From Candidatus Hadarchaeales archaeon (GTDB taxonomy: Archaea; Hadarchaeota; Hadarchaeia; Hadarchaeales; Hadarchaeaceae), in assembly GCA_038851565.1 (NCBI GenBank), contig JAWCKV010000012.1, positions 1-23,773 of the forward strand: a DNA stretch of 23,773 nucleotides, in the 5' to 3' direction. The position numbers and the translations under genes were made by a program. The notes under the pieces were generated by a model, which worked only from the letters and a program-made list of their open reading frames with translations, was not told the origin of the DNA and did no database searches. Below are positions 7,297 through 23,400 of this stretch, piece after piece (position 1 is the stretch's first letter; the number at the start of each line of letters is the position of its first letter).

Positions 7297-7330
7297 CCGG
7301 AGAGAATCACCTGTTAGGGAGGTGTGGCGA

Positions 7331-7570
7331 ATGCCGATGGCAATAGTTCTGATAGACGCGCATGCCGGAACCGTGAGGGACATCATGGAGGGACTGAAGA
7401 AGATCAACGGGGTCGTGGAGGCCTACGGTGTAACGGGCCCGCACGACATCGTGGTCAAGATCGAACTGGGCAGGTTCGAGGATATCGCGGAGACCGTCAG
7501 CCAGGTCATACACAAGCTACCGGGCGTGAAGAACACCCTCACGATGTTCGCCTTCGAGCGGATAAAGTAG
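7331..7570 (+). CDS. Stand-alone Lrp/AsnC ligand-binding (RAM) domain protein
   Basis: GGAGGTG RBS before ATG 7331. GVVEAYGVTGPHDIVVKI and LPGVKNTLT; no HTH. TTTTTAAC TATA-like element near 7290. Confidence 0.88.
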   Translation: MPMAIVLIDAHAGTVRDIMEGLKKINGVVEAYGVTGPHDIVVKIELGRFEDIAETVSQVIHKLPGVKNTLTMFAFERIK

Positions 7571-7576
7571 GGATGC

Positions 7577-7644
7577 GGCACGTCAGTCCGCCCATCATTC
7601 ATATCATCGACAAGCTCAGACGATGTCGTGACATCATCCGTGCC
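7577..7644 (-). ncRNA. Box C/D 2'-O-methylation guide sRNA
   Basis: Minus strand reads GGCACG-G-ATGATGT(C)-CACGACATCGT-CTGA(D')-GCTTGTCG-ATGATAT(C')-GAATGATGGGCGGA-CTGA(D)-CGTGCC. 6-bp terminal stem; both guides are complementary to conserved rRNA segments. Confidence 0.85.
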
Positions 7645-7716: not shown

Positions 7717-9249
7717 CTACCCCAGATCAAGCCTCTCCCCGTTCCGGAGTATCCGGACCTCCGGGCCCCTCACGCGCTCACGGAAGAAATCTGGATTTTC
7801 CGTGTGGACTGGCACAACGACCTTTGGGGAGATCTCCTCTATCATTTCTACCAGCTCCATCGGCGGCGCGTGCCCTGAAGCGTGAAAACCTCCAGTGAAA
7901 ACCGGCTTTCCATCGTTACCTATCCTGAACCCGACCACCCTTATCCCGAACATGCTGAGCCAGTTCCACAGCCTGCTGAAATCGAAGACGTCCTCCTCGT
8001 TGAAGGCCTCGCTGCTCGAGTAGATGTAGAGCCCCCCATCTGGCCTTATGTCGAGGAGGTTGTTGACGTCCCAGAAGCTGAAGCTGACGATGTAGCTTCC
8101 CTGGTTTTTTGAAATCTCCTCTGGGCCCAACAGCTTATCCTCATGTGCGCGCGCCACCTGCTCCTCCCACTTCTCCCGCTCCTTTATCGGCTGAAAAATG
8201 CGCAGCCTCTCAGTTCTTTCAACCCCGTCCACCGAGCCAACGGCGTCCAGGAGGTAGGCGTCCCTCATTGTGATCACCAGCTGCCGCCCTACCTTTTCCG
8301 CTACCCTAATGAAGGTCTCCAGCCTCTCGAGGTTTTTGGGAGAAAAGTCAGCGATGATCAGCCCACTCTCCCCCTCTGCGGCTTTGAGGCAGTTCTCATA
8401 CACCCTCTCCTCCGAGTCTCCCCCCTCCCCGGACCTGCTGCACCTGGTGCCCTCTATGACCAGCACACTCGGGCTCAGCTCCGCTGCCTTCCTCAGGAAG
8501 CGCCTGGTATCCCCTCCCCTGGCACCGTGTGTCCTCATGTCCCCGGTGTAAACCACCCAGCCTGCTCCTGTCTCCACTGCATAGGCGGAGGCCCCGAACA
8601 CCGAGTGGTCGACCGGGAAGTGTATGAAACCGGGAGCCTCATCGCCAGCCGGGGCCAGCCTCCCAGGGTCCAACCTCCTGCCGCCCGGGCTCCTCCTCCA
8701 GAACTCGGCAAACTTCTCAGGTAACCTGTCCACTATGAAAAAATCCCTCCCCGCGCTGGGCACCTTTTTCCAATCGCTTGCCACGACCATCCTATCTTCC
8801 GCATCGCACCTCACCCTGGGGGGAGAGTAAACCGCCTGTGAGTGGAGGTCAGATCTCCCTGAGTCCTGCACCGCCTTAAGGATGGCAGCGGTCATCGCGG
8901 TACAGTAAACCGGAACATCAGCCCTGAGGAGGCCTATGCAGCCAGAATGATCAAGGTGGGCATGGGTGAGGAGCACCCCGTCCACGCGAAGCGGGCTGAG
9001 CTGGCTCTGATCGAAATCTCCGGGGAAGATGTCTTCGCGATAAATCCTGAAGCGGGGAGCCAGGCCCATAGCGATGTAGTCGTGGATGCCCCTCCTGGAC
9101 CTGGGCTTAAGGTACTCCTCGTAGTACATTCCCATCCTGTGAAAGTTTATGCCAAAATCGAGGAGGAGCCCTCTCCCCCTGTCCTCCAGGTATATCTTTG
9201 AGCCGCCTATCGTGTCAGCACCGTCGAGCACGGTCAGAGAACCTGACAG
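7717..9249 (-). CDS. Metallo-beta-lactamase / beta-CASP (RNase J-like) nuclease family protein
   Basis: IGGSKIYL, LLLDFG, THAHLDH, VDHS, YTGD, FHASGHA, VVPVHTE. Start uncertain (CTG 9249 or GTG 9231). Confidence 0.88.
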   Translation of the reverse strand: MSGSLTVLDGADTIGGSKIYLEDRGRGLLLDFGINFHRMGMYYEEYLKPRSRRGIHDYIAMGLAPRFRIYREDIFPGDFDQSQLSPLRVDGVLLTHAHLDHSGCIGLLRADVPVYCTAMTAAILKAVQDSGRSDLHSQAVYSPPRVRCDAEDRMVVASDWKKVPSAGRDFFIVDRLPEKFAEFWRRSPGGRRLDPGRLAPAGDEAPGFIHFPVDHSVFGASAYAVETGAGWVVYTGDMRTHGARGGDTRRFLRKAAELSPSVLVIEGTRCSRSGEGGDSEERVYENCLKAAEGESGLIIADFSPKNLERLETFIRVAEKVGRQLVITMRDAYLLDAVGSVDGVERTERLRIFQPIKEREKWEEQVARAHEDKLLGPEEISKNQGSYIVSFSFWDVNNLLDIRPDGGLYIYSSSEAFNEEDVFDFSRLWNWLSMFGIRVVGFRIGNDGKPVFTGGFHASGHAPPMELVEMIEEISPKVVVPVHTENPDFFRERVRGPEVRILRNGERLDLG

Positions 9250-23102: not shown

Positions 23103-23309
23103 GCTGTTTCCCCCTTCACGTTTGGAGTTCAAACGTGGCCTTGGATGACCCCACAACAGAAAGCCGCATGCTCCGGCTGGCCCCTTGCGTCAACTTACTC
23201 TCCTCCGTGTTTTTCACTCCCAACTCCGGTCCAGCCAGCCCCCACATCTACACGACTTCAAATCATTTAAGCTTAATTATTGAGGTAGCGGGTTACCACG
23301 AACGAGAGG

Positions 23310-23400
23310 TGCGGCAGGCGGGATTCGAACCCGCGCCGCAGGCTTGGCAAGCCTGTGTCCTTTTTGGGGGATGTCCCTAACCAAGCTAGACTACTGCCGC
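23310..23400 (-). tRNA. tRNA-Gly(GCC) with a 17-nt intron in the D-loop; full CCA not encoded
   Basis: Acceptor GCGGCAG/CTGCCGC-A, D stem GTCT/GGAC, anticodon arm CAGGC-TTGCCAA-GCCTG, T arm GCGGG-TTCGAAT-CCCGC. Removing 23362-23378 gives a 74-nt cloverleaf. Confidence 0.95.
23362..23378 (-). other. Non-canonical tRNA intron (position 20a/21) with bulge-helix-bulge
   Basis: UUGG/CCAA 4-bp central helix, 3-nt bulges UUA and AAA, inner helix GGG/CCC closing an ACAU loop. Confidence 0.88.

Follow-up and report, generated by a model that had tools for sequence, protein, structure and literature searches.

Which ribosomal sites does a short element wedged between two genes of an archaeon of the order Hadarchaeales address, and do these sites lie on one ribosomal subunit or on both? 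The question arises from a 23,773-nt stretch of contig JAWCKV010000012.1 (assembly GCA_038851565.1; hereafter the window), in which an initial annotation had read a box C/D sRNA whose two guides would reach the functional centers of both subunits, in departure from the nearby sites on one RNA that archaeal dual guides commonly address. Our comparison with related genomes suggests that the sRNA is probably an ordinary linked dual guide on domain V of 23S rRNA, probably with a 16S target in addition, in which the ancestral guide to U2504 is well supported.

A conserved box C/D sRNA family in Hadarchaeota

As read from its sequence layout, the sRNA gene occupies positions 7577-7644 of the minus strand and is 68 nt long with its 6-bp terminal stem (7644-7639 paired to 7582-7577). 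On the same strand follow the C box AUGAUGU (7631-7637), with its last A changed to U, the D' guide CACGACAUCGU (7620-7630), the D' box CUGA (7616-7619), the C' box AUGAUAU (7601-7607), the D guide GAAUGAUGGGCGGA (7587-7600) and the D box CUGA (7583-7586), so that the C, D', C' and D boxes stand in the order and within the span of about 50-70 nt that characterize archaeal box C/D sRNAs. The C and D' boxes are the same in all 43 aligned copies. The C' box had been called degenerate, and it is so beyond its conserved AUGA; nonetheless, its UGA and the closing G-C pair are invariant (43/43). The genome also encodes the box C/D proteins fibrillarin, Nop5 and L7Ae, the last represented by two L7Ae-family hits that are not distinguished from eL30.

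A D-guide pattern matched 42 of the 65 genomes of the order and none in the reversed control, and a search model built from the 43 copies (R1) recovered the sRNA in 58 of the 66 genomes of the phylum Hadarchaeota; titled records with the same sRNA belong to Hadarchaeota/Hadarchaeales. Two-sided changes occur at five of the six terminal-stem pairs and number 67 over the tested structure, mostly in this stem, a count that counts kin as independent and that none of 500 shuffles reached. Both the terminal stem and the kink-turn-forming GA/GA elements appear to be under selection, as expected of an archaeal box C/D sRNA. The D' box varies in genomes G026 and G059 and is absent or altered in family f4. 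Judged by this conservation and covariation, we consider 7577-7644 to be a real, conserved and previously uncatalogued family of archaeal box C/D sRNAs of the ordinary kind. No Rfam family covers it, and at gathering score Rfam yields no match in the window: the box layout of sR2 (RF01139) gives a weak match, 20.8 bits (E 0.014) against a gathering score of 42, which leaves the sRNA outside that family, and the box layout of snoPyro_CD (RF00095) likewise matches below threshold, with different guides in both cases. Tandem duplicate copies of the sRNA were seen in G010 (C96 4421-4680) and G040 (C44 36287-36472).

The gene sits in a 146-nt gap. On one side lies a convergent gene for a small Lrp/AsnC ligand-binding domain (7322-7570, plus strand; Pfam PF01037), which is not part of the sRNA and which has a relative at 17 of the 77 sRNA loci tested, its own locus counted, all 17 in Hadarchaeales. 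On the other side, a gene for a metallo-beta-lactamase-fold protein (7717-9231, minus strand) ends 73 nt before the sRNA; this neighbor recurs at none of the 76 other loci and no relatives of the protein were confirmed, and its transcript is a possible host of the sRNA. A bacterial-type promoter scan found nothing, and one RNA sequencing run, which need not contain the organism, gave 0 reads. Within the Lrp/AsnC gene, the 11-mer of the D' guide recurs at 7443-7453 as H-D-I-V codons, in inverted repeat with the sRNA gene, which we read as chance. An ARAGORN call of undetermined type at 23308-23400 (minus strand) is probably spurious. Across the whole genome, a motif scan, which degenerate guides escape, returned ten loose C/D candidates, and among these the 7577-7644 sRNA alone combines a stem of more than 3 bp with two guides that match rRNA; a possible second C/D sRNA lies at C29:+4247.

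The D' guide and U2504 of 23S rRNA

The initial annotation had matched the D' guide to 23S positions 2501-2508 and, by the +5 rule, to U2504 in the peptidyl transferase center (PTC). This organism's assembly (823 kb, 87% complete) yielded no 16S or 23S gene when searched for rRNA genes, and we used the 23S genes of relatives in place of the missing cognate gene, with positions numbered by the E. coli row of a published alignment (PMC4644070) and with at least nine contiguous Watson-Crick pairs around the +5 position as the mark of a U2504 guide. Genes for 23S rRNA were not recovered from G003, G005, G039, G040, G052, G065, G067, G069, G070, G097 and G100. In most of 32 Hadarchaeal genomes the target reads CGAUGUCG(G/U)(U/C). 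Against the 23S rRNA of same-genus G045, which has G2509, the guide of the window forms the predicted 8 bp, with the fifth base upstream of the D' box opposite U2504. Pairing had been asked to run beyond 2508, and it does so by one pair, to 9 bp, with the U2509 genes of G001 and G006, which carry an identical guide, and of G023 and G041, but not with G045.

U2504 was the top site for this guide in 16S and 23S rRNA of all four relatives tried, and a better target, of at least 10 bp, was found neither in the 16S and 23S genes of these four relatives nor in 33 tRNA calls of the own genome. Anywhere in the two rRNAs, however, the 8-bp score was reached by 87 of 300 shuffles and the 9-bp score by 20 of 300, so the match of the window alone does not go beyond chance, and it is the comparative evidence that does so.

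This evidence comes mainly from a second order, that of G065 and, to judge by taxonomy, probably Methanofastidiosales. Here 29 of 34 genomes hold the D-guide pattern, and the D' core CGACAGCGU is present at 28 of these 29 loci. All 16 recovered 23S genes of the order have C2503, and all 16 pair over 10-11 bp with their own D' guide; for one of them (G081), none of 200 shuffles reached the score. Guide position 4 and 23S position 2503 form U4:A2503 in Hadarchaeales and G4:C2503 in the second order, in 16 of the 16 genomes with both genes, and an uncultured Thermococci record from this second order shares both guides, apart from one change at position 4 of the D' guide. We read this exchange as amounting to a single compensatory change between the two lineages. 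Within Hadarchaeales, the D' duplex extends to 10 bp in four of five genomes of family f3, and guide positions N3-N7 are compatible with the target in 50 of the 52 copies of f1, the family of the window, and f3. A 23S tree placed f3 closest to the outgroup with weak support and with two rows spoiled by intron sequence, and we do not rely on it. In the rest of the phylum of G065 (99 genomes), a U2504-type pattern occurs in seven, none of the eight matches in an sRNA context, which is chance level.

Could the D' guide be aimed elsewhere, whether at a tRNA or an mRNA, at a second site on 23S rRNA some 100 nt upstream, or on 16S rRNA at helix 44 or the 3' flank? An 8-bp match in the own tRNA-Ile(GAU) gene, a 7-bp match at the second 23S site and four further perfect 11-nt complements in the own genome would speak for such a role, but the tRNA-Ile match, the outcome for 33 tRNA calls from a genome that is 87% complete, falls within an insertion behind the anticodon, read here as an intron; the second 23S site is shorter and not among the top sites of G041; helix 44 would place an A-A mismatch at +5; and the 11-mers, the copy in the Lrp/AsnC gene among them, lie in coding DNA in both orientations. 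We consider this reading highly improbable. Among 16S sites, helix 24/25, helix 34, helix 44 and the 3' flank were rejected as D' targets for lack of a full +5 match or of covariation. The insertion itself, about 14 nt long, lies in the tRNA gene at G000:C25:132-223, is likely an intron and contains the 8-nt complement. Altogether, the comparative sequence record supports U2504 as the best rRNA or tRNA target of this D' guide family, and we hold it very probable that the guide of the window descends from a U2504 guide.

The D guide fits sites on both subunits

The D guide of the window forms 10 bp with positions 1399-1408 of 16S rRNA, which puts C1402 at +5. It also forms 10 bp with the A-loop of 23S rRNA (2555-2564), with C2558 at +5, a site that lies 54 nt after U2504 in every 23S examined. 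The two target stretches differ by transitions only, and the majority form of the guide (N2=G, N8=U, N10=G) is the sole sequence that pairs with both, which means that both sites may be used. The claim that the sRNA addresses both subunits therefore stands in part: C1402 is a plausible target, but C2558 fits about equally well.

The initial annotation implied a strictly cross-subunit design, in which the D guide serves C1402 only, the D' guide serves U2504, and the A-loop match would be a side effect of the resemblance between the two rRNA stretches. In its favor, the 16S duplex is more stable than the A-loop duplex (-19.2 versus -15.6 kcal/mol), its score was reached by only 11 of 500 shuffles, and G stands at N2 in all 29 second-order copies, for which the search pattern fixes N10, and in 46 of 61 copies in Hadarchaeales. 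Of the 31 Hadarchaeales, 17 score higher on 16S, nine on 23S and five equally on both, and all 13 second-order genomes score higher on 16S. Moreover, Cm1402 has been measured in Nanoarchaeum equitans (PMC5389701), and other archaea combine this D guide with unrelated partner guides, as in records from Iainarchaeota, Asgard, Bathyarchaeia and Thermoplasmatota, one of which (L123) has a D' guide that resembles Rfam sR60.

Against this design stands the way in which the guide varies. All departures from the majority form preserve the 23S duplex: the A-loop duplex keeps at least 10 pairs in all 31 Hadarchaeales homologues with a cognate 23S gene, whereas 17 of the 61 copies lose a 16S pair, 15 with N2=A and two with N10=A, each of which turns a G-U into an A-U pair on 23S and breaks the pair on 16S. 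Drift would likewise be expected to yield a G-to-A bias. At N8, U is kept in 59 of 61 copies and in 29 of 29 of the second order, though C would suit the invariant G1405 better, and the two genomes with N8=C both have G at the facing 23S base. With 31 of 31 genomes keeping the A-loop duplex and 17 of 61 copies losing the 16S pair, the likeliest core job of the sRNA is a nearby pair on one rRNA. The D guide thus has a credible 10-bp target on the same rRNA as the D' guide, and the supposed departure from the nearby-sites rule is not supported as stated: with C2558 only 54 nt downstream, U2504 and C2558 make up the usual nearby arrangement, as in 237 of 260 rRNA dual guides of Pyrobaculum, whose sites lie within 100 nt (PMC6009581). 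An unlinked 8-bp D' match would also fail the usual 9-bp rule of the same study (PMC6009581). We regard the strictly cross-subunit design as improbable. For the individual sites, methylation of C1402 by the D guide appears fairly probable, and that of C2558 somewhat probable.

The relaxed rule for linked guides, which allows sites up to 100 nt apart, at most one mismatch and a combined score of at least 32 (PMC6009581), accommodates the pair, with a distance of 54 nt and scores of 16 and 18 (34 in sum), the stronger of the two duplexes containing two G-U pairs. Linkage within 100 nt arose in 81 of 2000 shuffles for the 8-bp duplex and in 12 of 2000 for the 9-bp duplex. Linkage is not obligatory, because in G100 of the second order each guide sits on an sRNA of its own, beside a new partner (L305, L397), which we interpret as guide shuffling within that order.

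Erosion of the D' guide in family f1

The conservation of the D' guide, which had been named as a check on the U2504 assignment, proved uneven. Positions N3-N7 are kept and the second order retains 10-11 bp, but in family f1 positions N8-N11 vary in sequence and length beside a kept N1-N7, and two further families have no such guide. Among the 19 f1 genomes with both genes, the duplex reaches 9 bp in five, 8 bp in three and 7 bp or less in 11, and G042 and G044 combine C2503 with a retained U4, which leaves a mismatch beside the target. In all six genomes of family f5, guides of the CACGGUA type stand in place of the D' guide; they match 16S rRNA best (7 bp in G061 and G063) just 3' of helix 34, in a register that shifts, an apparent retargeting from 23S to 16S rRNA. 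In family f4, no D' guide is recognizable in three of three genomes. By this pattern, the guide is eroding and partly drifting in f1, where it may no longer methylate.

One reading takes the f1 guide for a relic: the D guide alone would work, on C1402, C2558 or both, and the ACAUCGU core would be kept by pairing with the C box or as a weak folding contact. The D' core is complementary to the own C box and forms an 8-bp hairpin (-7.6 kcal/mol) that is present in the minimum free energy structure, and N8-N11 vary like its loop while the C-box-complementary N1-N7 are kept. N2=A in G025, G036 and G044 strengthens the hairpin and breaks the 23S pair, and the short duplexes of most f1 genomes and the uncompensated mismatch of G042 and G044 point the same way. 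The hairpin, however, shows two-sided change at none of its seven pairs, comes automatically because the D' target CGAUGU resembles a C box, and is absent from f5 and from the second order, both of which retain the sRNA; such a hairpin would also block the C/D kink-turn, which counts against the relic. Besides, the guide found in the window is the most frequent one in f1, and duplexes of its 8-9 bp are reported to suffice in vitro (PMC7089733). The hairpin keeps the relic reading alive in f1, but we hold it to be rather unlikely. Whether the D' guide still methylates in the organism of the window we judge to be evenly balanced.

Comparison with known guide RNAs

Several characterized or predicted archaeal sRNAs resemble parts of the present one. 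Closest for the D' guide is sR204 of Ignicoccus hospitalis, whose D' guide has the same PTC-loop complement and a predicted target, U2778, that corresponds to E. coli U2504 by column count, with a nearby 23S site, G2744, as the target of its partner guide (PMC4644070); it differs in its unrelated other guide, is a prediction only, and shows no sign of homology beyond the shared target. For the D guide, sR64 of Methanopyrus kandleri has a D guide in the same register, predicted for C2832, equivalent to E. coli C2558 (counted from C2830 = C2556), and again a nearby 23S partner, here C2807 rather than U2504 (PMC4644070). The D' guide of Pyrococcus furiosus sR26, GUGAUGGGCGAA, is nearly identical to the D guide of the window and methylates in vitro a substrate that matches the 23S A-loop of the loci studied here, an identity that we infer (PMC4836650; PMC7089733). 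It differs in lying at D' rather than D, in an A at N2 and in lacking a U2504 guide as partner. A second substrate corresponds to the 3' end of 16S rRNA, so that sR26 too looks cross-subunit, although the passages that describe it name no rRNA.

A firmer precedent for a cross-subunit dual guide is sR20 of N. equitans, one sRNA assigned to 16S Gm1530 and 23S Cm1920, both measured modifications, although its sites are others and its helices meet at the subunit interface (PMC5389701). With such a precedent, and with the A-loop match, the unusual two-subunit design is partly supported and weaker than first proposed. The same GAUGGGCG(G/A) guide is found in I. hospitalis sR11, M. kandleri sR114, S. 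acidocaldarius sR122 and M. maripaludis sR106, each with a different partner guide; sR11 has been proposed for Cm1402, and the guide is listed as 'NP' for all four in the table of that compilation (PMC4644070). Passages of PMC12124282, PMC12123411, bioRxiv 2022.07.15.499945, PMC7758197, PMC11077068 and PMC7994747 offered nothing on the sites considered here.

The 23S target region

Position 2503, next to the predicted target, is naturally C in all 16 second-order 23S genes and in four of 32 Hadarchaeales (G042, G044, G056 and G057); A2503C is a chloramphenicol-resistance change in Rhodothermus (PMC8614978), and the position is absent from the main text of a preprint on divergent PTCs (bioRxiv 2024.11.12.623245). 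Besides C2503, G056 (C14 near 23520) has three more changes just before 2500, GCAGUCUC for GCUACCUC, which may reflect either a divergent PTC or a mistake in the assembly. Nine of the 32 Hadarchaeales carry a 23S intron at 2500-2502, the edge of the D' target, of about 780-800 nt (222 in G028). Since this intron ends in C, the D' guide could pair before or after splicing. In G045, this intron contains a gene for a LAGLIDADG endonuclease, and another intron lies after the A-loop region. G008 and G047 hold extra rRNA fragments unlike their native ones, which are probably misbinned.

The initial annotation had described U2504 as a pseudouridine in E. coli and as relevant to antibiotics, in agreement with the literature: resistance mutations are known at 2503 and 2504, and mutation of U2504 confers resistance to chloramphenicol or linezolid (bioRxiv 2024.11.12.623245; PMC8614978). 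In the literature searched, largely outside subscription journals, we found neither a measured Um2504 nor a paper on Hadarchaeota sRNAs, and U2504 appears only as a prediction in one archaeon.

A linked guide on domain V and its implications

Taken together, the sequence comparisons point to an sRNA whose D' guide would direct Um at 23S U2504 and whose D guide would direct Cm at C2558 of the A-loop, with C1402 of 16S rRNA as a probable extra target, an account to which we give about an even chance. Following established box C/D biochemistry, L7Ae would bind both kink-turns, after which Nop5 and fibrillarin would assemble; on domain V in its unfolded state, the D guide would then settle on the A-loop strand and the D' guide on the PTC loop, and the assembled RNP would methylate the ribose of C2558 and U2504 by the +5 rule. 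In a separate cycle, the D guide would pair with pre-16S rRNA at C1402. Through the D guide, the RNP would stay tethered to this part of domain V, which would keep the short D' duplex of 8-9 bp active; duplexes of 8-10 bp have given high methylation in vitro (PMC7089733). Expression of the sRNA, assembly of the RNP and the +5 rule are steps that we infer for this account.

More tentatively still, and rather doubtfully at present, the sRNA may be a three-target guide, for U2504 and, through a single D guide that compromises by G-U pairing, for both C2558 and C1402, possibly the principal guide for rRNA methylation to remain in a streamlined genome, in an arrangement common to Hadarchaeota and the Thermococci order. 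The widespread GAUGGGCG(G/A) guide is usually assigned to C1402 but also fits the 23S A-loop, an ambiguity that bears on the annotation of sRNAs that carry it. If active, the sRNA would add a ribose methylation to the PTC at U2504, where E. coli has pseudouridine, and if the three-target reading is true, maturation of the catalytic and the decoding center would be tied to one RNP.
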